Shown: positions 10,695-30,821, counted from the first letter of the stretch. The stretch: 34,906 nt of DNA from Pelomyxa schiedti (GCA_020536535.1 JAHLWZ010000975.1:1-34906); one strand, 5' to 3'. Notes: generated from the letters alone by a model not told the origin. Numbers and translations: made by a program.

Positions 10695-11632
10695 TCAGTT
10701 CAAGCGAATGAGATTTCCGAATTCAGAAGATGTTTGTGGCTGAAGAAGTCCAACGTGTGGCAATGTAGACACATGAAGAAAACATAGAGGACTTGGGTTG
10801 TTCAGGGGAAGACCTACAGTTGTTGTGAATTCGTTTGTTGGTGTTGTTACAGCTAGAACCTTTTTGTAGATAATATCTAGAATATGGGCTACTCCTTGTT
10901 CAAGGAATTGCTGGTTCTGTTTGCCTGGAATGTGTACAAACCCGGCAAGGGGAATCATAATGTTCTGTAGTGTTCCGACTTCTTTAATTAACCACTTAGA
11001 ACGAACAGTCATCCATTATAACAGCAGAAGCTACCTTGAAGCTGCATTTTTCTAGAATGAGCTCTCCACAACGTTGAATACAAAGCCAAGTTACAGAAAT
11101 AAGTTCCTGCATGCCACGACACAGAAGCAGATATTCCCCTATGGCCCAGCTGCTCAGCCAACCAGCTTGACCCGAGTGTGGATTGCAGTGCCAAAGGGCC
11201 CCCATTGACCAGAGCCACTCCATCCCCAGGCCTTGTGATTCCATTAGCGTCAGGCCTTATGTGTTGCAAAACATTAAGTCCAATGCACTCAATGTGGAAC
11301 TCAGTGGCCTCAGGGTCCACACCAAGGTGGATAAATGCAAAGGCTGAGTCACTTACATCGCCGTGTTGGTCCCACAGTGTATTGATACCCATCTGTGCTT
11401 CGGTTGTCCTATTTGTTGCTCTTAGTTGATGTATTGGCAGCCAGAACTCTATCCAAATTTTAAGTGGAGCTCTTTACACAGGAAGAATTTGCGTGATAAT
11501 TCTACATGGGGGCAATAGAGCCAAGGCCTCAGGGCACACAGTTCGATTCTCTATTGCCCTCACTACCATCTCTGAGGGATTGGTTGGGGCCGATATGTAG
11601 GGCCCGTACCCTGTCAACACAACTTTCGGCAT
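10695..11632 (-). CDS. PGPEP1-like: Pyroglutamyl-peptidase I (pyrrolidone-carboxylate peptidase, peptidase family C15), with at least one intron.
   Basis: - Exon 1 (from ATG 11632) reads MPKVVLTGYGPYISAPTNPSEMVVRAIENRTVCPEALA.
- Exon 2 reads INTLWDQHGDVSDSAFAFIHLGVDPEATEFHIECIGLNVLQHIRPDANGITRPGDGVALVNGGPLALQSTLGSSWLAEQLGHRGISASVSWHAGTYFCNLALYSTLW.
- The C-terminus has IPLAGFVHIPGKQNQQFLEQGVAHILDIIYKKVLAV.
These match PCP motifs (TGFePF, GxAxgR..i..E.vA.N, AGtYvCN, aGFiHvP). Confidence 0.7.
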
Positions 11633-12701: not shown

Positions 12702-12984
12702 GATGACGACATTGGCACCACACACCAACCTCAATACTTAAAGAAACAAAACCAATCACAAGAGCAGAACCCCAACCAACTCTTTTTTTTTTCCATTGTG
12801 GGATTTCGTGGTGGCACCGCAGCTCAAAGCTGGATCAGAATGAGTTGAGGCTGATCCCACTCTCTTTCCTGAAGTGCAAAGATCTGTAACTGCAACTTCT
12901 ATGGGATGTGCCGGTTCCATAATGGTTCGGCGGAAATTTTTTTGGCATTTTCTTCCTTTGGGGCTAAACAAGCTTGTTGACTTC
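12702..12984. promoter_or_regulatory. Candidate bidirectional promoter region between divergently oriented serB-like (minus) and ACD-GNAT (plus) genes.
   Basis: This is inferred only from divergent gene starts roughly 170-280 bp apart. It contains a T-run at about 12784-12795. No motif is claimed. Confidence 0.2.
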
Positions 12985-15900
12985 ATGGAAGGGTACGACG
13001 ACGTCTTCTTGCTTGAAAAGCACCTTGTCGAGCCTCTGTTGGGTTCCTGCGACGTAGCCGCCGTGTATGGAAAAAATCTTTCTTGTAAACCTCTCTTGTT
13101 GGTTCTTGGCGTCGTTGCTTTACTTTTGTTTCCTTGTGGCTGTTTCGGTTTTTTTTGTTGTTGTTGTTGCTTTGTTGAAAGATCTCGCCAGGCGCACTTA
13201 CGACGGGAATAACCGACCGGTTTTTTACGACGAGTGCATTGCCTCGCTCTTCAGCCCAAAGTCAATAGCGGTTGTTGGTGCTACTGATCGTCCCGGCATT
13301 GGGAGGATTACACTTGCCAATATCAAGGGAGCCGTATGTCACCATTAGTTTCTATATTCATAAAATAAAATAAAATAAAAAGGGTACAAAGGCGGCAGTA
13401 TGGGGTATAAATCCTGGACGTAAAGTGGTTCTGGGACAACCATGTTTCCCTTCTGTCAAAGATTGCCCAAGCGTGCCAGACCTAGTAGTCATAGTTACAC
13501 CTGCTCCTACTGTTCCTGCCATTGTCCAACAGTGTGTTGACATTAGGGTCAAGGTAGTGTTGTTTTTTTTCCGTGGATACTTCCTGTTGACTCGCTTTAG
13601 GCAATTATTGTTATAAGCTCTGGATTCAAAGAAGTTGGGCCAGCAGGAAAGTTGTTGGAAGATCAAATCTCTGCTTCTCTACATTCCACAAGATATACAA
13701 GACTTGTAGGGCCAAACTGCCTCGGAATACACTGCTCTTACACCAATTTGAATACAACATTTGGGTCTTCCGAATGTACCCCTGTATGCCACCGTCCAAA
13801 ACACACACTGGCTTAAAATATTAGGGAAACTGTGCAGTTGCAAGCCAAAGTGGTGCTGTAATTTGTACGATTCTTGATTGGGCACTTCAAAATGGTATCG
13901 GGTTCAGCAGCATGGTCTCTGTTGGATCCATGTTAGATGTTACCTGGTATCTCTTGCTTTATCATTCATTGTGCCTAACTTTTCGAAGGGCTGAACTTTT
14001 GTTGTACTTTGGAAATGACCCAAACACTAAGTTCATTGTAATTTATATGGAATCTATTGGCAATGCAGAAGCTTTCATGGCAGCAGCTCAGCAAGTCACA
14101 CTTCGTAAGCCCGTTATTGTACTGAAAGCTGGACGTACTGATGTAAATTGCACCATATATTGTCTTGTATCTAATTCTTGTTCTTTTAGGAAGCTGCAAA
14201 GGCAGCAATGTCTCATACAGGAACACTAGCCGGATCTGATCATATTCTTGACGTTGCATTCAAGCGTGTTGGTGTGATTCGAGTAGACTCGATTACTGAG
14301 ATTTACTCTGTATGTTTGTATTTCCTCAGCACTGGCACATATCCCAACCAAAACAGAATATTATGATGTTTTCGTTTTCTCCCATTCCCAGAGGGCCCAA
14401 TGTTGCTGTAGTTACTCACGCTGGTGGTCCTGGCGTTATTTCTACTGATACCATTGCACAAGTTACTGGGTGAGTTCCACTAAACAAATATAGTAATACA
14501 CTTCAGTGTGGGGGAAAGCTTGCTACAATTCCAAAATCCGTCATAGATTCGTTGAATCCTCTTCTTCCCAAAAATTGGTCCATGGTACCTGGCAACCTAC
14601 CACCGATACTTCCCATTAACTCCATTTCTAGACAAATCCTCTGGACCTTAGTGGTGGTGCTTCTCCGGAGTGCTATCAGTATGTTCTTGACGCCCTGTCG
14701 CAATTAGAAGATGTCCACAGTGTAATGGCCATAGTTGCTCCTCTTTCAGGAATTTGTCCTGGGACACCAGTAGCTCAATACCTGAAGCAATTCAAAGATA
14801 GATGCCCCGATAAAACGTTAGTAGTGGGAATGCTGGGTGGTGATGAGTTACTATGTGCAAGAAAGGCATTAATCAGAAATCGTAAGATTAAATAGCTTTG
14901 GAAGAAAACTCACTCTATGTAGACATTGCCGCATTTAATGTTACGGACATAACGGCCAGGACTATCACTGCGTAATTGACTCTGATTTTTTCTTACTGAG
15001 AATGACATCTCCTCCTTAGTGCCTGGAATTACCGAAAAACTGTCATGGACTTGCATCAGCCCCCCAAAGCGCTTCCGCGATTACATGATCATTGGAAAGC
15101 GACGTCTACTGTGAACGAACTTTTGTCCACTGTACTACCGCTCTTTCGTGTTCTCTTTTAACAAGAATACGTCTATGTAGGTACAAGCAACAGGCAGAAC
15201 AATTCTTACTGAAGCAGAATCGAAAACCGTGCTAGAGGCGTATGGTATTCCGATTACCAAGACTATTCCCACTCGCTCTGTAGAGGAAGCACTTTCTGCA
15301 GCTAACTCAATCGGGTATCCGGTATGTGATTTCAGTGTTGGAGCAGGAATCTTACACAGATAAAGGTCGTGCTGAAGCTTCTTAGTGAAACAATTACCCA
15401 CAAATCTGATGTTGGTGGTGTTTTGCTCAACATAGACTCGGACGAGGCCGTGCGACTTGGCTTCGAAACAATCAAGGTAAATCAACATCATTTCAATCAC
15501 AAGGAATCAATGGATCCCAGATGAATCTTCAAAAATGTCATCCTGATACGTGGCAAACCCACTTCCTCGGTGTAACAGTCCAACCAATGATAAATGCAAG
15601 CGAATCACTGGAACTTCTCCTTGGAAGTAGGCCTTGTTCTTCTTTATTCAGTTCTAAACATCCACAGGCCATACCGATGCTCAACTAGGACCTGTTGTTG
15701 TTTTTGGTACTGGAGGAAAGTTGGTGGAAGTCTTTAAAGACACTGCAGTTGGGCTTCCACCTCTTGACGCCACATTAGTTGAAATGATGATGAAGCAGGT
15801 TCTTAGTGCAATTAGTGTGGTGTCGGTAGTTAATACAAATAGACGAAAATATTTAAAGCCCTGGGTGGCGTTAGAGGGAGCAAGCCTGTTGACTTGGACA

Positions 15901-16860
15901 AACTCATGGCAATAATTATCTCTTTTGGTGATATGATTTCCAATCATCCCCTTATCAAGGTTTCTCAATCCCTTTGTTTCTTGGCTTAATCTGCTCAGGA
16001 ATGTGACATCAATCCTCTTTTGGCTTCCTCTCAAAGAATAACTGCCGTAGATGGACGTATAGTCTTGTGGCCACAGAGTACATCCATACAATCAATCCCT
16101 AAGGCAACTGCCCTTTCACTTCCTTCATAGCCTCTAACATTTCTGGTTAGGCGGTGATAAAGCCGTATGCTTATGAGTTTGTGCGAGATATTACTATGAC
16201 CAATGGGGCACAAATAACTGTGCGCATGCTAAGGTACTGTACAATGAATTGAGGTTTTAGCCGACTCGTACTTCAAGAGTGGATGACTGTGCTGCATGGC
16301 AAGCATGGGGAAAGTTAGCCACCGAGGACACAGCGTACACATCACTGGCAATGGAATCCACCAAAGCCCAGCGCTTCAATTTTGCTCGCACTACGAGGAT
16401 CCTTTTCTCTTGCATGGATTCCTTTGGCATTGTTGCATTGGATACCCCCGGCCACATTCTGGCTGGTATAAGGTATTTGACCCCGTTCCACGGCTTTTCT
16501 CAGTCACATGAAATAGGATAATCAAATACTCCCATGCACAGTGCGTGTGCAGCCCGGTTTTCAGCATGGAGCAAATAGGCACCGAGCTGTTCAAACACAT
16601 CCTGCAACACACATGCCACGTGGCTTCCCACTATACACGCTGCTCCGAGATATCAGGTTCCTTCCCAACATACACATGAAAACCAAAATCAAAATTCACC
16701 AAACTAACCAACACAAACAGCGGTGGTACCTCTCACAAGGCACAATGCACCATGGGCTCACGGCGCCGCGATGGCCGCAGCCTTTGAGGCCTTTGGGTTC
16801 AAGGCAGACCCGAAATCCACAAGCGAATTGAGAATCCTGCACTTCCCACTTTCGCCCTGA
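12985..16860 (+). CDS. NDP-forming acyl-CoA synthetase (ADP-forming acetyl-CoA synthetase type: CoA-binding, succinyl-CoA-synthetase-like, ATP-grasp) fused to a C-terminal GNAT acetyltransferase domain (bacterial Pat/YfiQ-like architecture). About 14 exons.
   Basis: - The N-terminal exon reads [19 protein letters not shown], followed by an intron of roughly 140 nt with a strong polypyrimidine tract.
- Next is [51 protein letters not shown] | [57 protein letters not shown] | [45 protein letters not shown] | [34 protein letters not shown].
- Then [42 protein letters not shown] | [39 protein letters not shown] | [26 protein letters not shown].
- The ATP-grasp region is [46 protein letters not shown] | [37 protein letters not shown] ... 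[43 protein letters not shown] ... [26 protein letters not shown].
- GNAT exons read [14 protein letters not shown], then [66 protein letters not shown], then [22 protein letters not shown] (motif A-like), then [38 protein letters not shown] stop (16858-16860).
The catalytic His is retained (SHTG). Confidence 0.65.
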
Positions 16861-16984: not shown

Positions 16985-18451
16985 ATGCATCAACGAACAG
17001 AAACGCCATCACGCCCCCGTCCGTTATCGGTGAGGCTTTTTTTTGTTGTTTCTCTCTCGTCGCTCTATATTATTCCTACCTGTCATTAGTGTTTCCTTGT
17101 TTTTTGTTTTTTTTTTATCAGCATAATTTTTTTCCCCCCCTATAGGGTGTTATCATTGGTGCTAAGGGAAACCTGCAGCAATGCGTTAATTGTACTACAC
17201 AACCATCAAGCACACCAACATCACCATCTTTGACACCCATTTCCGCGCTGCCTTGTAGCGAATCACCGTTGCTGCCACTGTCACCGTCACCATCACAGTC
17301 ACTGACACAGGAGGATGCTTTTGCTTTTACTTTGGCACCACCACCATCTACACCAGCACCACTCCCACCATCCACACCTCGGATCACGCTATCATCTCTG
17401 CCACCCCTGCCCCCTCTGTCATCACTTTCGCTTCCTTCTGCGCCTCCTCCACCCCCTCCCTCTGTGTCTGCAATGCCACTGTCATCATCATCGCTTTCTT
17501 TGCCGCCACTGCCACTACCACCTTCTCCTTCAACCTCGAAAATGCCAGCATATCCGGCACCTTCTCCTCCCCTGGGAGTTTTGACTGTACCACTAAGCAC
17601 TACTGTGTGTAATTCTACACCACCAACTGGAATGAGCCCAAGTACTCTTCCAAGTGAATCCACTTCCACACCCCGAACTACATCTTCACCAACACTATCC
17701 TCATTTATTCCTGCTGTGCCATATTCGCACACAACTCTTCCACAGGCAAAGCATGTACCTCGGGCAACATCCACTCCTCTGGCACTTTCTTCTCCCCAAG
17801 TCCCAACAGCTGACATAACACCATTCCCCACGGCCATACCCGATGATGCCAAGCAAGTCGAGGTTCTCGTAGTAGGGATTCACGACCTCTGTGCTAAATC
17901 TCTTGCTACTCAATTTGTAGAGAGTATTTATCTCCCAGAAGAGCATGGTATCTAAGGCTCAACACCTTCCTTCTGACCTATTACCGGCAGAATTCACTCC
18001 TGGTTGTAAAATTGTAATGGCTGGCCTGTTTCCTGCAAAAGTTCATGTAACTCACATTTCATGGAACAATGTGGAACCTGGTCTTCTACAACTCGCTCCC
18101 AGTTCCAGTTTAGTGGTCTATGTGCAAAGTAGGACTGATTGTGTGTCATTTGGGCGACTTGAAGAAGCACTCGGGACACTGCATAAGAAATGCAAAGCAC
18201 GCACAGTCATGTGTGTGATTGATTCTAGAAAGGACATCACTGAAGAGTCAGCTCCAAATACAAAACGTTATGTTCGTGGTGCTGAATTTCTCTCTGTGCT
18301 GACAAAACTTGAACACATGGTGTGGATGCTGGGTTGTGCGGATGTTCGTGACACAGGTTCTGTCTGGTTTTTTTTCCAAGAAGTATTGTCAAATTTTCTT
18401 TCCAAGACACCAAGTAAGAAAATGTATGTTTCCATAGAAGAAATATTTTAA
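16985..18451 (+). CDS. Pro/Ser-rich protein with a conserved C-terminal globular region of unknown function (3 exons).
   Basis: - Exon 1 (16985-17029) reads MHQRTETPSRPRPLS.
- An intron of roughly 116 nt ends in tttttttccccccctatag at 17145.
- Exon 2 (17146-17945) reads GVIIGAKGNLQQCVNCTTQPSSTPTSPSLTPISALP..PPPSTPAPLPPSTP...DDAKQVEVLVVGIHDLCAKSLATQFVESIYLPEEH.
- A 43-nt intron (17946-17988) restores the frame.
- Exon 3 reads EFTPGCKIVMAGLFPAKVHVTHISWNNVEPGLLQLAPSSSLVVYVQSRTDCVSFGRLEEALGTLHKKCKARTVMCVIDSRKD...SIEEIF stop at 18451.
The minus-strand Gly-rich ORF 17118-17852 is rejected as antisense. Confidence 0.45.
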
Positions 18452-26429: not shown

Positions 26430-26567
26430 AAGCTCGTTGTCAACAAACAAAGTTGAAGCACAGGAGGGGAGATAGTGGGGAGGAGGGGGAGGGGGAGGGG
26501 GGGGGAGGGAGTACCTCCTCCTTTACCCTCCTCCCCCTCCTCCCCAACCAAGCTCGTTGTCAACAAA
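26430..26567. repeat. Perfect G-rich/C-rich inverted repeat (hairpin with stems of about 33 nt centred on gtac at about 26510). It is flanked by 19-bp direct repeats caagctcgttgtcaacaaa (26430-26448 and 26549-26567).
   Basis: The sequence is ggggaggagggggagggggaggggggggaggga gtac ctcctcctttaccctcctccccctcctcccc. The G arm has 4 or more G-runs (G-quadruplex-capable). It lies 17 bp upstream of the proposed ATG of the NHL gene. Confidence 0.8.
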
Positions 26568-26584
26568 AATATTTGTATTGGCAG

Positions 26585-27993
26585 ATGACAACCAAGTTGG
26601 GGCGCGGACGGGGAGGGGGACGCGTTGCACCAGGTCGGCGGGACGGCCCTTCCTTCGAGGTGCCGTACGACGTGTGCGTCGATGCGCCCAGGAATCGAGT
26701 TGTGGTTGTGGACTGGCAGATGAACGCGGTGTGGATACTAAAAGGCCTTCCCGACACCAGCTCCGTGTCGCGGCGCTCCTGGCAGGATTGTGGGACGCGA
26801 CACAAGATGGCTTCCGTGGAGCTGGGCGACGTCGAAGTGCTTCTCGTCGGGGGGAGAGGTAGGCAGGGGCTCGAGGACGGGCCAGCGAAAGCCGCTTCTT
26901 TTAAGTGGCCTATAGCGTTGGTGGTGGCCAATGATGGGACAATTTACGTGACCGAGCAGGGGAATAGCTGCATTAGGAAGGTGTCACTGAATGGTGTGTG
27001 TTACTAGGGAAAAGCTCACTCATGCTGGCGATTTTTCCTCTATTGTGGGGTTATGTAATAATCTTTAGGGGACGTTACTCTTGTGGCTGGAAGGGGAGGA
27101 AACGGATTTTCTGATGGAAGAGGTGCTGAAGCTTATTTCTCTTCGCCATGGGGAATTACTATTGAGCCTGGAAGTGGAGACCTTATTGTGTGTGATGTAG
27201 AAAATCATAGGATCAGAAGAGTTACAACCGATGGTTAGTTACCCTTTGGATTACAGCCTTTTGCAATAACTAGGCTTTTCCTGTACTAATCCAGGTATGG
27301 TCACAACTCTTGCAGGGACGGGTGAGAAAGGGTCAACTGATGGCCCGTGCTTACTGGCCAAATTTTCAGCTCCTCGTGGACTTGTATTTGACTCACATGG
27401 AAACCTCTTTATTACCGATTGTGGCTCTTCCTCCATCCGTAAGATTTCACAAGGTTCGTACCACCCCTAATTCTTGTCCTACAACTAATTGGCAATAAAA
27501 AATAATTACCCTTTCGTTGGTATGATCAATCTATCAAAGGGCAAGTTTCCACTTTACATAGATTCAGCTTTGAAGGAATGGATAACAATATTTTAACTGC
27601 AATCAAACTTACACCTGATGAACGGCAATTTGTTATCTCTGACCCAAGAAACAAGATAATACTATTTTATTGCATTGGTTTTGACTTTGATCTCTCGTCT
27701 CCTTTACTACTAAAATCTTTTCCACAGAAACAGGAGCCTGTGAGCTTGTTAACAACTTGCCCATTCTTCACCCCATGGGCTTTTTTGTGAGTAGGGATGG
27801 CGTCTATCTGGCACAGGGAAAATCAAAAGCCTTGGTTTGCATTAAACTGGGGCTCCCCACTTTCAAGGAACTGAAACCGCTTCTGATTGGGTGGAAAGAC
27901 AACAACAGCCTGCTCAATTGTCTTCCCCTTCCCCTGCTTCAGATGATTATCGAATATGCATGGACATGCTCTCTTCCTGCTCTTAAATTGTAG
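26585..27993 (+). CDS. NHL-repeat (six-bladed beta-propeller type) protein, multi-exon, with a GC-rich first exon.
   Basis: - MTTKLGRGRGGGRVAPGRRDGPSFEVPYDVCVDAPRNRVVVVDWQMNAVWILKG...FKWPIALVVANDGTIYVTEQGNSCIRKV.
- DVTLVAGRGGNGFSDGRGAEAYFSSPWGITIEPGSGDLIVCDVENHRIRRVTTDG.
- MVTTLAGTGEKGSTDGPCLLAKFSAPRGLVFDSHGNLFITDCGSSSIRKISQG.
- ...ETGACELVNNLPILHPMGFFVSRDGVYLAQ...stop at 27991-27993.
Introns are roughly 27004-27060, 27237-27295, 27461-27539 and 27729-27737 (uncertain). Confidence 0.6.
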
Positions 27994-28061: not shown

Positions 28062-29398
28062 CTAGTACAGTGAGAGGGTGCTCTCTGATGTTGTACCACT
28101 TTTTGGTGCTTCTACCTTGGGTGTTTCCACCTCCTCAGATGGGGTACCTTTTGAAGGCACCGTTGCTGAAGGGGTTGTGGATTCCACTGCAGGCTCTGGG
28201 TCATTGATGTACCTCGGGACAGACTCAACAATCTGTAACAGCACATCATTCGATAAGGATGTGGAAGGAATCTCCATCCACTCATTGCGGGATTCTGTGG
28301 GATTTGCAGGGCATATGGAGAACTGGATGGACATAAGAATTTGGTTAATGATTGTGCTGACGACTAACCATCCATCTCAAATCGGGGCCAATTTCCCCAG
28401 TGTGAGGGTTGCGCCTTGAATACCAGATTACTTGTCCATTGTGAATCAAATCCTTTGGGTCTTTAGACAGATACAACTTGGTGAAATCTCGTTGCATTAT
28501 TTTCTCAATCCTTGATCTGAACACCCACATAACCTAGAGAGGGTTTCTACCTTGTTGTTGTGTACGGCCTTCTTACCTCACCATGGCATACAATCACAAC
28601 TTGTTTGCCAGACAACTCACGCCGGAGTGTATTATAAGTATGGTCAATCCTCTGCAGTACATGTGCAAGAGACTCTCCTGATTGAGGAGACCAGAAGAAA
28701 CTTTGAACAGGATTAATTGTGCAGAGTTATCATCCCCTGTTAAAATTTACCAATCACGCGCTCGCCTCTCCAGTTCTGCGGCGTATTTCGCCCTCTGTTA
28801 CAACCACCACACGAGATTAGTATGATCACAAAGGAAAAACTGGCTTCACCTGTTCCACAATAGACGTATTATCAAGAACGCCCTTATCTCTCTCCCTCAA
28901 TAGAACCTCTGTTCTCCAAACAGCCCCAGGCAGGTCAAGCAATGCAGCAGTCTCCATGGCCCTCGTGTATTCGCTCGTGTAGTATCTATCAAAGTGTGTG
29001 GTGATGTTTTTCTTTATCCAGGCTCCAGCAGCCTGAGCCTCTTGTCTCCCGCGGTCTGTGAGCCTGAGTGACGACGATTATGTTAGTTGACGAACCCAAA
29101 TTACTTCCATAGTGTTAGAGTGGAGATTGTCAATACGAATTCAAAAGCAAGCATAAGGAGCAAGGATAGAATTGAAATAGAAAAGAACTGGAGATGCCGG
29201 GCACCTGTAGAGGCTCGAGTGCTTTGCGGCAAAGCCCTCGACGGCGTAGCCACTGAGATCGCCCTTTTTTGCGCGGCTCTGGGCCTCGTTGCCCTCGGAT
29301 CGGCCGTGCCTCACAAACACCAGATCAATTGGTGGCAACCCGTGGGACACGTGCGGTGCCGTTGGCGGTTCACTGCAAGTTGCTGTTGTCGATGCCAT
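28062..29398 (-). CDS. Histidine phosphatase superfamily (phosphoglycerate-mutase-like branch) protein, multi-exon. The first exon is GC-rich.
   Basis: - Exon 1 (29398-~29200) reads MASTTATCSEPPTAPHVSHGLPPIDLVFVRHGRSEGNEAQSRAKKGDLSGYAVEGF (RHG catalytic motif).
- Next is SLRLTDRGRQEAQAAGAWIKKNITTHFDRYYTSEYTRAMETAALLDLPGAVWRTEVLLRERDKGVLDNTSIVEQ.
- Then ...VIVCHGEV... and ...YSRRNPHTGEIGPDLRWMVSRQHNH.
- The C-terminal exon IVESVPRYINDPEPAVESTT...STLSLY ends at 28062. Confidence 0.55.
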
Positions 29399-29602
29399 TT
29401 TTCGTCTGTTCTTGTAAATCCCGAATCAAAAACCTGTTCAAGGGGCGTTTCCTGTTTGTTCGAGAATATCACCCTTTTCACCTGCACCTCCGCTGTTCCT
29501 TTCCAACATCCACTGCGTGTTGTGCTCGGAAAATTCTAAACTATTCTACAGTTTCGAGGTCACAATTGCATTGCAATCAATCGAAACACTGACACTGATT
29601 AG

Positions 29603-30821
29603 ATGGCGGCAACCTCTGTTGGCACATACAGGCCGTGCAGTGTCCCAGAGGCCATCGAGGCAATCCGAGACCTCCACGAGAAGCAGCGCACCTACTACCC
29701 CTGGACCCCCAACACGGCCCAGCTGGGCCCCCGCGACCTCCTCCTCATCGGCTCCCGCGCCCTGGCCTACCTCTCCCAGTGGGGCGCCTTCTCCCCCCCC
29801 GCGAGCCCCAGCCCCTTCCGCCCCGTGGACGCCCGCACCGACTGGGACCTCGTGGGCAGCAAGGCCTCGGTGGCGGCGTGGCTGGAGCGCTGCGCGGCCC
29901 GCGTGGACCAGCTGCACATCAGCAAGGGGGCCCCGCGTCTAGTCGACGAGGGCGACTTCGAGGGGGTGCTGCTGGTCTCGTGCAGGCTGGACGGCGTCCA
30001 CGACGTCGAGGTGCTCGTGTGCACGTTGCTGAGGGAGCAATTGGAGTGTGAGGCGGTGCCCACGGGATTTGATTGCTGCTTGCCTGATGTATCTATATGC
30101 ATATTATCTGATATCCTCTCATCTTGTTTTATTGGCTAATACATTTGGTTTCTTTGGTTTGATTTACATTTGGTTTTCGTTTTTGGTTGTTTTATTATGT
30201 ACATTTGGCGGTTTTACACTTGAGTTTCTTCTCCCTTAAACTATTTAAGGTAAAAATGTTAACCCTTTTTAGGGCACCCCATTTTCTGTGGCGAGTTTGT
30301 TGGCCCTCTGTAAGATAAAGCTCAGTCACTTGGTTTACAATGTCAACTGGAAAAAGCACATGCTGCATTTTGAGGCTATTAAACGCCATTTGTCAGACAG
30401 AAGGCTTCTTGATTCATATCTATTTCAAGTGCTTAACGATTATTCCTGGGAATATAATCCACTGTGCCTCGTGAATAAGCTCATATACGGGTATGCACCA
30501 ACGCAGAGACACTGGATGAGCACCAATCAGCTCATCTCCGAATCCGACTTACCTGCCTTAGAGAGCAAACTTTTGGCCTGCCCTCCTGACTCCCAGAACG
30601 GGTCTGAGACAGGAAATGACCTCAAAGTGAGAGATGTAATACGTACTTTATCACAAGGAGCACTGGATCAACAGTCCTTTTTTTCGCTTTCCGGGAATCA
30701 ACAGAAGGCAGTGGCACTCGAGATAGCCAACCAATTTAGTGCAAGATCCAGAGTCTCTTTTGTGGAGGCAGTGAAAGCGGTCTGTACTTCCACCTTCACC
30801 ACCTTCATTCCTTCCATCTGA
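29603..30821 (+). CDS. Two-exon gene of unknown function. Exon 1 is GC-rich (about 70% GC) and exon 2 is AT-moderate. Weak nucleotidyltransferase-like (GS...DxD...D.E.) and F-box-like motif patterns are present.
   Basis: Exon 1 (29603-30088) reads MAATSVGTYRPCSVPEAIEAIRDLHEKQRTYYPWTPNTAQLGPRDLLLIGSRALAYLSQWGAFSPPASPSPFRPVDARTDWDLVGSKASVAAWLERCAARVDQLHISKGAPRLVDEGDFEGVLLVSCRLDGVHDVEVLVCTLLREQLECEAVPTGFDCCLPD. The donor GT at 30089 is in phase 0. The intron is 30089-30272 (184 nt) and its acceptor ttttag is in phase 0. Exon 2 (30273-30821) reads GTPFSVASLLALCKIKLSHLVYNVNWKKHMLHFEAIKRHLSDRRLLDSYLFQVLNDYSWEYNPLCLVNKLIYGYAPTQRHWM...FIPSI stop. The ORF is long in both exons and the splice phases are consistent. 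Confidence 0.45.

Follow-up and report, generated by a model that had tools for sequence, protein, structure and literature searches.

The gene Pelo_14978 lies at positions 12985..16860 on the + strand of a contig of 34,906 nucleotides from the anaerobic archamoeba Pelomyxa schiedti (GCA_020536535.1, JAHLWZ010000975.1:1-34906), the whole of which is referred to below as the window, and its complete coding sequence of 22 exons specifies a protein of 944 amino acids, in which the modules of an acetyl-CoA synthetase (ACS) of the ADP-forming kind are followed by a degenerate domain of the GNAT type. We consider it probable that this protein is a cytosolic, acetate- and ATP-forming ADP-forming acetyl-CoA synthetase, that it goes back to one bacterial transfer into the Archamoebae, and that its GNAT domain is vestigial. 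The annotation of the gene as an acetyl-CoA synthetase is already known, having been published on the grounds of homology alone (PMC8887013), and the point made here is a modest evolutionary and annotational one, not a new kind of system. An account of the archamoebal ACS clade as a Pat-type fusion with a vestigial GNAT was not found in the searchable literature, and literature searches, whether for protist ADP-forming ACS that carry a GNAT or for the Entamoeba histolytica enzyme EhACD, returned nothing relevant.

By its domains and by the histidines of its SHTG and ATP-grasp motifs, the product would be placed, on the criteria available from sequence, in the nucleoside diphosphate-forming acyl-CoA synthetase superfamily (ACD / ACS-ADP, COG1042). 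The first-pass annotation of the DNA had read all the modules of such a synthetase, including an SHTGTLAGS segment with the catalytic histidine, and this was borne out by four Pfam domains arranged along the gene on the + strand. The CoA-binding domain (residues 50-175, 13259..13732; CoA_binding_2 1.2e-18, CoA_binding 8e-11) is followed by a succinyl-CoA-ligase-like flavodoxin domain bearing the phosphohistidine loop (residues 192-325, 13781..14359; Succ_CoA_lig 1.7e-51), then by a Ligase_CoA_2 domain (residues 340-481, 14402..14960; 8.9e-8) and an ATP-grasp domain (residues 523-747, 15181..16067; ATP-grasp_5 5.9e-76). Alignments place the SHTG motif at 14211..14222, with the codon of His293, the predicted phosphohistidine, at 14214-14216, and the HKSD motif with His581 within the ATP-grasp domain at 15399-15410 (both +). 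Two sets of relatives were compared throughout, namely the closest 220 bacterial synthetase-GNAT fusions (P0009-P0229) and nine eukaryote-type sequences, comprising three Pelomyxa paralogues, Mastigamoeba, Rhizomastix, Entamoeba marina and three environmental sequences. SHTG is present in 229/229 of the family members examined, and in a 42-sequence family alignment E254 (of YMES), S292-H293-T294-G295 and H581-K582-D584 are invariant.

In the PDB the proteins nearest in sequence belong to the active ADP-forming CoA ligases, namely 8wzu, a 4-hydroxybutyryl-CoA synthetase from Nitrosopumilus (6.6e-118), and 4xyl, the alpha and beta subunits of ACD1 from Ca. Korarchaeum cryptofilum (4.5e-82 and 8.3e-43). 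The alignment of catalytic residues that the first-pass annotation had proposed, against Pat and archaeal ACD, bears out its reading of this half, since both SHTG and HKSD align with 8wzu and 4xyl: His293 falls on the SHTG of 8wzu, and the ATP-grasp domain aligns with 4xyl_B at 3.6e-43 with THKSDVGGV opposite VHKSDVGGV. The full-length AlphaFold2 (AF2) model of Pelo_14978 has a predicted local distance difference test (pLDDT) value of 89.5 and a predicted template modelling score (pTM) of 0.88, and lower confidence is confined to residues 22-38 and to the histidine loop at residues 290-300; the latter dip fits a mobile, swinging phosphohistidine loop. In comparison with ACD1 the flavodoxin domain gives template modelling (TM) scores of 0.92-0.94 against the alpha subunit and the full-length model 0.92-0.95 against alpha and beta, and ACD1 and 8wzu together share with it the same catalytic core (TM 0.92-0.95, root-mean-square deviation (rmsd) 1.5-2.4 A per subunit) and the aligned SHTG and HKSD histidines. 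By all that a sequence can tell, the synthetase half would be catalytically competent.

The remaining C-terminal 185 residues (760-944, exons 19-22, 16151..16857, +) are assigned by hhalign, PDB profile and Foldseek to a degenerate GNAT-fold domain. The Pfam search, which returned the four synthetase domains, gave no GNAT family in this part of Pelo_14978 at E<=1, and among eight eukaryote-type C-terminal domains searched at E<=10 only 1/8 was matched (Acetyltransf_3, E 0.01). The first-pass annotation had held that the lack of a GNAT profile match would refute its reading, and in terms of Pfam that lack is what was found; yet both the ancestry and the fold emerge by more sensitive methods, the null result having been followed by profile-profile, PDB-profile and fold comparison. 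With phmmer, Pelo_14978 aligns continuously with PatZ/Pat (9isq, 9it0) over residues 45-848 (E 5e-96), that is, well into the GNAT of PatZ. With hhalign, the eight eukaryote-type C-terminal domains match the GNAT of the bacterial sister family at a probability of 99.6% (E 1.4e-23, 166 columns), and the profile of the same domains searched against the PDB finds the PatZ GNAT at 1.3e-6 and the Streptomyces PatA GNAT (4nxy/4u5y) at 0.003-0.008. An AF2 model of the domain alone (pLDDT 87.7) has as its top Foldseek matches 9it0 (PatZ), 4u5y and 4nxy (SlPatA GNAT) and Rv0998, followed by hundreds of GNAT entries, the match to 4u5y_A having E 4e-11, TM 0.72/0.89 and an rmsd of 2.3 A. Taken together, these four lines of comparison show that the C-terminal domain derives from a GNAT, and the mixed beta-sheet/helix fold of this family is present in the model of residues 760-944. 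The best match of the full-length model in the whole PDB is liganded E. coli PatZ (9it0_A, TM 0.81/0.86), over 923 columns, so that the order of synthetase and GNAT domains seen in Pat/YfiQ, as claimed at first pass, was upheld, and in the predicted structure the Pat-like architecture is real, including the docking of the GNAT on the synthetase.

What has been kept of the fold has not been kept of the active site. What is left of the GNAT strand beta4 and of motif A was located at 16536..16589 (+) by alignments and a regular-expression census. At this place the bacterial sister proteins read ..AE[FC]A.LV.D.[FY]Q.xG[LI]G[TS]ELL, from which the Pelomyxa segment deviates; the stretch aligned to the GNAT P-loop is SMEQIGTEL or IGTELF. 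Of the bacterial fusions, 213/220 carry the acetyl-CoA P-loop [QR]xxGx[GA] in their C-terminal region and the other 7 have H for Q/R; of the eukaryote-type members of the archamoebal clade 0/9 carry it when the whole C-terminal region is scanned. In PatZ, whose GNAT is active, the catalytic Glu is E809 and the P-loop is G822-G824 (bioRxiv 10.1101/2024.11.12.623305). The HMMER alignment sets E809 opposite a Ser of Pelo_14978, hhalign sets the equivalent Glu of the bacterial fusions opposite a Val, and no Asp or Glu is found anywhere in the 11-residue strand of Pelo_14978 that matches the E809 strand. The domain has also diverged fast: its identity to other lineages is 17-24%, as against 42-56% for the synthetase domains, and even to the close Pelomyxa paralogue it is 51%, as against 73-80% for the synthetase part; among the eight eukaryote-type C-terminal domains there is 1 invariant column and a mean column identity of 38%, and in Mastigamoeba (P0008) and the environmental sequence P0003 the domain is shortened after helix alpha3.

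This pattern bears directly on the suggestion, made at first pass on account of the retained histidine, that the protein could be truly bifunctional, the synthetase making or consuming acetyl-CoA while the GNAT acetylates lysines, in this case through a non-canonical site. The GNAT fold is kept, the closest bacterial relatives carry both sets of catalytic motifs as well as a 'bifunctional' name at NCBI, and some GNATs function without a dedicated general base. Against this, the motif A glycines and the Q/R are gone in 9/9 eukaryote-type sequences, no acidic residue stands opposite PatZ E809, no Pfam GNAT family is matched, and the domain diverges fast and is shortened in some lineages, for which reasons a bifunctional enzyme is very unlikely and the claim was not sustained. 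Acetyltransferase activity of the remnant is, by the same residues, unlikely.

The retained histidine finds its explanation among the relatives. The closest non-eukaryotic relatives are bacterial fusions of about 910 amino acids from cyanobacteria, Acidobacteriota, Chloroflexota and others, which score about 730 bits against Pelo_14978 at 40-44% identity, as compared with 326 bits for PatZ, and which bear the NCBI name 'bifunctional acetate--CoA ligase family protein/GNAT family N-acetyltransferase'. They resemble Pelo_14978 in length and domain order, and both SHTG and HKSD are kept in 220/220; they differ in that their GNAT matches Pfam (PF00583/PF13302) and keeps the [QRH]xxGxG loop and the AE[FC]A.LV strand, in that the GNAT-like domain of Pelo_14978 is only 23-24% identical to theirs, and in that their genes are intronless. 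Since SHTG is kept in all of these closest bacterial fusions, retention of the histidine is ancestral for the subgroup and not peculiar to the eukaryotic gene; thus the first-pass annotation was right that His293 is present, while the distinction it drew from this falls away. Its statement that the synthetase part of Pat lacks the catalytic His agrees with the literature, in which that domain is described as catalytically inactive (PMC3195501, PMC8556138), and with the alignment, where at the SHTG site PatZ carries Leu opposite His293 together with a deletion of 4 residues. PatZ/Pat (YfiQ; 9it0, 9isq) share with Pelo_14978 the domain order, the three-dimensional arrangement and the ATP-grasp His of HKSD/HKSE, at an overall identity of about 27%, but in catalytic equipment Pelo_14978 is their reverse, with His present and GNAT motifs lost where PatZ has lost the His and kept an active GNAT. 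Three traits of a type I bacterial GNAT (Pat/PatZ/YfiQ), namely an inactive synthetase, the P-loop and the catalytic Glu, are not seen in Pelo_14978. The archaeal ligases, for their part, end after ATP-grasp without any GNAT, ACD1 being moreover split into alpha and beta subunits, and they score lower against Pelo_14978 than the bacterial fusions do (398 vs about 730 bits).

The other archamoebal ACS, namely Pelo_14578 (P0002), Pelo_10869 (P0004, annotated as mitochondrial), Mastigamoeba balamuthi m51a1_g369 and those of Rhizomastix libera and Entamoeba marina, belong to the same clade and have the same architecture with a degenerate C-terminus lacking a Pfam GNAT match, at 44-71% identity to Pelo_14978. 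When the synthetase columns are compared by neighbour-joining (NJ), 100/100 bootstraps unite the nine eukaryote-type sequences in a single clan that excludes the 74 bacterial sequences sampled, a result that fits a single acquisition by the archamoebal lineage followed by decay of the GNAT.

The Entamoeba marina member (P0042) is a 919-amino-acid protein of the archamoebal clade, and when it was used as the query no E. histolytica protein appeared among its top 120 matches; the characterised E. histolytica ACD may represent a different ACS lineage or a strongly diverged one, and it was not used as experimental support for Pelo_14978. Among the eight ACS copies listed for P. schiedti (table in PMC8887013) at least two sequence types can be told apart, a long, fusion-derived one (Pelo_14978, 14578 and 10869) and a shorter one (Pelo_5299 and 14030) that starts with 'M..IF.P.SIA(V/I)IGA(G/S)..PG(T/S)IGN', and it is probable that the ACS genes of this genome do not share a single origin.

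The gene structure on which these comparisons depend was obtained by enumerating in-phase GT..AG junctions between open segments of the three forward frames and assembling them. The 22 exons (all +) lie at 12985-13064, 13192-13333, 13383-13553, 13601-13783, 13825-13946 and 13989-14142 (exons 1-6), 14190-14309, 14357-14461, 14507-14584, 14632-14881, 14923-14971 and 15020-15131 (exons 7-12), 15181-15321, 15366-15476, 15521-15626, 15668-15798, 15843-15959 and 15999-16103 (exons 13-18), and 16151-16233, 16278-16472, 16517-16656 and 16721-16860 (exons 19-22). After removal of the 21 introns, which measure 39-64 nt except for intron 1 with 127 nt, a coding sequence of 2835 nt remains open from the ATG at 12985 to the stop at 16858-16860. 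Its 944-residue translation matches P0001, which GenBank names 'acetyl-coenzym A synthetase [Pelomyxa schiedti]', with 100% identity over 100% of its length, and Zahonova et al. 2022 (PMC8887013, supplementary table) list the same sequence as Pelo_14978 among the eight ACS copies of P. schiedti. A spliced gene from 12985 to 16860 encoding a synthetase and a C-terminal GNAT, as proposed at first pass, was thus recovered, with 18 synthetase and 4 GNAT-like exons in place of the estimated 12 or so and 3; the peptides that had been quoted from the GNAT region all occur in the product, save that 'GIRY' and 'RYCTMN' run a few codons into introns.

Twenty of the 21 introns have GT-AG ends. The sole departure is a 47-nt GC-AG intron at the boundary between the synthetase and GNAT-like domains (16104..16150, +), which was chosen because it alone preserves a 14-residue peptide that the GenBank protein contains and that is conserved in the paralogue P0002. 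A GT donor at 16062, giving an 89-nt intron, was rejected, as it would remove that peptide, and a GTGAGT donor at 14470 was rejected for want of an in-phase acceptor at >=30 nt. Other donors are possible for exon 1, of which the 13065/13191 pair agrees with GenBank.

It is at this boundary that one might suspect two genes wrongly joined, a synthetase whose frame closes at the TAG at 16128-16130 or around 16250, followed by a small GNAT gene of its own that begins with the Met in 'DITMTNG'. Read-through of the 16104-16150 intron does meet the stop at 16128-16130, the connecting intron is the non-canonical one, and an in-frame ATG lies inside exon 19. The junctions, however, restore sequence that is continuous in intronless bacterial genes, RIVL...IPK|AVIKPYAYE corresponding to the unbroken RVVL...LPxPAIRPYPxQYV and ITVRMLR|VDD to VTIRPIRPEDE of the bacterial homologues, and the two parts are only 47 nt apart. 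The support for a single transcript comes from such homology at the splice junctions and from the open reading frames (ORFs) and a transcript of relatives. The same fused structure is found in the paralogue Pelo_14578 (P0002), which is 71% identical, a Trinity transcript of Rhizomastix libera (P0005) contains a complete fused ORF of 890 amino acids, and environmental relatives of 46-56% identity have unbroken ORFs of 867 and 883 amino acids on 2.7-2.9-kb contigs with short flanks resembling untranslated regions, which are consistent with assemblies derived from mRNA. Two wrongly joined genes are accordingly most improbable, and synthetase and GNAT-like exons would constitute one spliced eukaryotic gene.

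A different concern, that DNA of a bacterial endosymbiont or prey was mis-assembled into the amoeba genome, arises from the bacterial nature of the nearest non-eukaryotic relatives and from the presence of prokaryotic symbionts in Pelomyxa, as described in PMC10579272. The window, however, is a nuclear contig of an anaerobic archamoeba, in which 21 spliceosomal-type introns break the coding sequence and neighbouring ORFs encode the eukaryote-type domains NT-C2, NHL and Peptidase_C15; identity is 40-44% to bacteria as against 45-71% to archamoebal relatives, and an uninterrupted, near-identical bacterial copy was not found among 8000 scored candidates. Contamination can for practical purposes be set aside.

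As to where the enzyme would act, the first-pass annotation had seen a possible targeting peptide in the 5' exon. Acidic residues outnumber basic ones by 9 to 3 in residues 1-43 of Pelo_14978, most paralogues and orthologues begin likewise with M-[DE]-G-[YF], and published predictors score Pelo_14978 as non-organellar and cytosolic (PMC8887013), and for these reasons an N-terminal targeting peptide was rejected. In the model the N-terminus forms a short helix followed by a disordered linker (residues 22-38); the protein ends in -LSP, which does not resemble SKL. A later study (PMC10711303) did not confirm, for the ACS of P. schiedti in general, that they are targeted to an organelle. Upstream of 12985 there are in-frame ATGs at 12901 and 12922 with no stop between (window 12901-12984); translation from these would add 21-28 basic, hydrophobic residues (MGCAGSIMVRRKFFWHFLPLGLNKLVDF), starting with an MGC motif as in N-acylated proteins. 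That homologues keep the M-[DE]-G-[YF] start favours the ATG at 12985 over those at 12901 and 12922 as the probable point of initiation.

On the reading that we prefer, the protein would catalyse the reaction acetyl-CoA + ADP + Pi -> acetate + CoA + ATP. The CoA-binding and ligase domains would take up acetyl-CoA, the phosphate of the acyl phosphate would pass to His293 on the mobile SHTG loop, and from phosphorylated His293 it would be handed to ADP in the ATP-grasp domain with the aid of His581 of HKSD, the outcome being substrate-level ATP synthesis, most likely in the cytosol. The ancestor would have been a bacterial fusion resembling type I GNATs, from the subgroup that retains the histidine, and would have entered the archamoebal lineage once. 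Within the eukaryotic clade strong constraint appears to have persisted on the synthetase half, while the GNAT half would have kept its fold and docking position but given up both the catalytic Glu and the loop for the pyrophosphate of acetyl-CoA; most likely it is a vestige without catalysis, whose role, if any, would be structural or regulatory.

Several observations weigh against this account, or against parts of it. Equivalog cut-offs of NCBIfam are not reached, the scores being 429 vs 567 bits for acetate-CoA ligase and 487 vs 1300 bits for 4-hydroxybutyrate-CoA ligase, and the alpha-subunit domain TIGR02717, though matched at 1.3e-128, is likewise under its equivalog cut-off; acetate is therefore the acyl substrate that we infer. 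No enzyme assay for Pelo_14978 or another member of the clade was found in the literature searched. The NJ tree has no outgroup, and its bacterial sample, consisting of top-scoring sequences only, is a biased one. The alignments given to AF2 contained bacterial GNAT sequences, so that the call of the fold depends on the call of homology. With the Glu and the glycines of motif A gone, acetyltransfer is unlikely, though acetyl-CoA might still be bound. Finally, the GNAT-like domain has been kept open and foldable in most lineages, with 51% identity between two Pelomyxa paralogues, which argues for some kept function, structural or regulatory, over pure decay.

The last two points lead to a regulatory reading that overlaps with the preferred one, in which the non-transferring GNAT remnant binds acetyl-CoA or CoA, or makes contacts within a tetramer, and thereby tunes or assembles the synthetase. 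In its favour the C-terminal ORF is intact in 7/9 eukaryote-type sequences, the domain is modelled confidently (pLDDT ~85-95) and docked as in liganded PatZ, and in PatZ itself, a tetramer, each half depends on the other for its function (bioRxiv 10.1101/2024.11.12.623305). The near absence of invariant columns speaks against it, as do the shortening of the domain in two lineages and a pyrophosphate loop that differs even between Pelomyxa paralogues (SMEQIGT vs LGTQIQT), and we regard such regulation as possible though on balance improbable. Somewhat less probable again is its fuller form, an 'inverse Pat' in Archamoebae in which the roles of the halves are swapped, the dead GNAT serving as an acetyl-CoA- or CoA-sensing or tetramer-organising module that gates the output of acetate and ATP by the supply of acetyl-CoA. 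Cytosolic formation of acetate and ATP by a synthetase with a vestigial GNAT is the reading that we retain.

Elsewhere in the window, an ORF fragment matching Peptidase_C15 (pyroglutamyl peptidase) at 11009-11392 (-, E 3.7e-9) probably represents an exon belonging to the gene next upstream, which is oriented divergently; an NT-C2 domain of the EEIG1/EHBP1 type lies at 377-1654 (+, E 7e-13) and an NHL-repeat ORF at 26453-27007 (+, E 5.5e-8). Positions 1-1000 have 63% G+C, compared with about 42% for most of the window, and contain long ORFs overlapping on both strands; a second G+C-rich block (58%) at 29000-30000 has several overlapping ORFs on both strands and no Pfam match. Directly downstream of Pelo_14978 a Pro/Ser/Thr-rich low-complexity stretch is open on both strands (17230-17955, +; 17118-17852, -), with a strong C-over-G skew of -0.39 and no Pfam match. 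The tRNA and Rfam scans of the window were empty.

For the family, these results mean that at least one clade of the ATP-yielding ACS of anaerobic amoebae appears to be derived from a bacterial Pat-like fusion and not from a plain archaeal-type ACD, and the vestigial GNAT tail provides a marker for tracing the transfer. If it is true that the 220 bacterial sisters with both histidine and intact GNAT are bifunctional, this would contradict reviews, in which type I GNATs are said to have a synthetase domain made inactive by lack of the His, a generalisation which seems to rest on the enterobacterial Pat/PatZ subgroup. For P. schiedti the practical consequence is modest: Pelo_14978 is correctly named an acetyl-CoA synthetase, and the label of lysine acetyltransferase should be avoided. 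The family as a whole spans three states, with the histidine absent and the GNAT active (Pat), the histidine present and the GNAT intact (the bacterial sisters), and the histidine present and the GNAT dead, and could be used in this form to ask how each half regulates the other.

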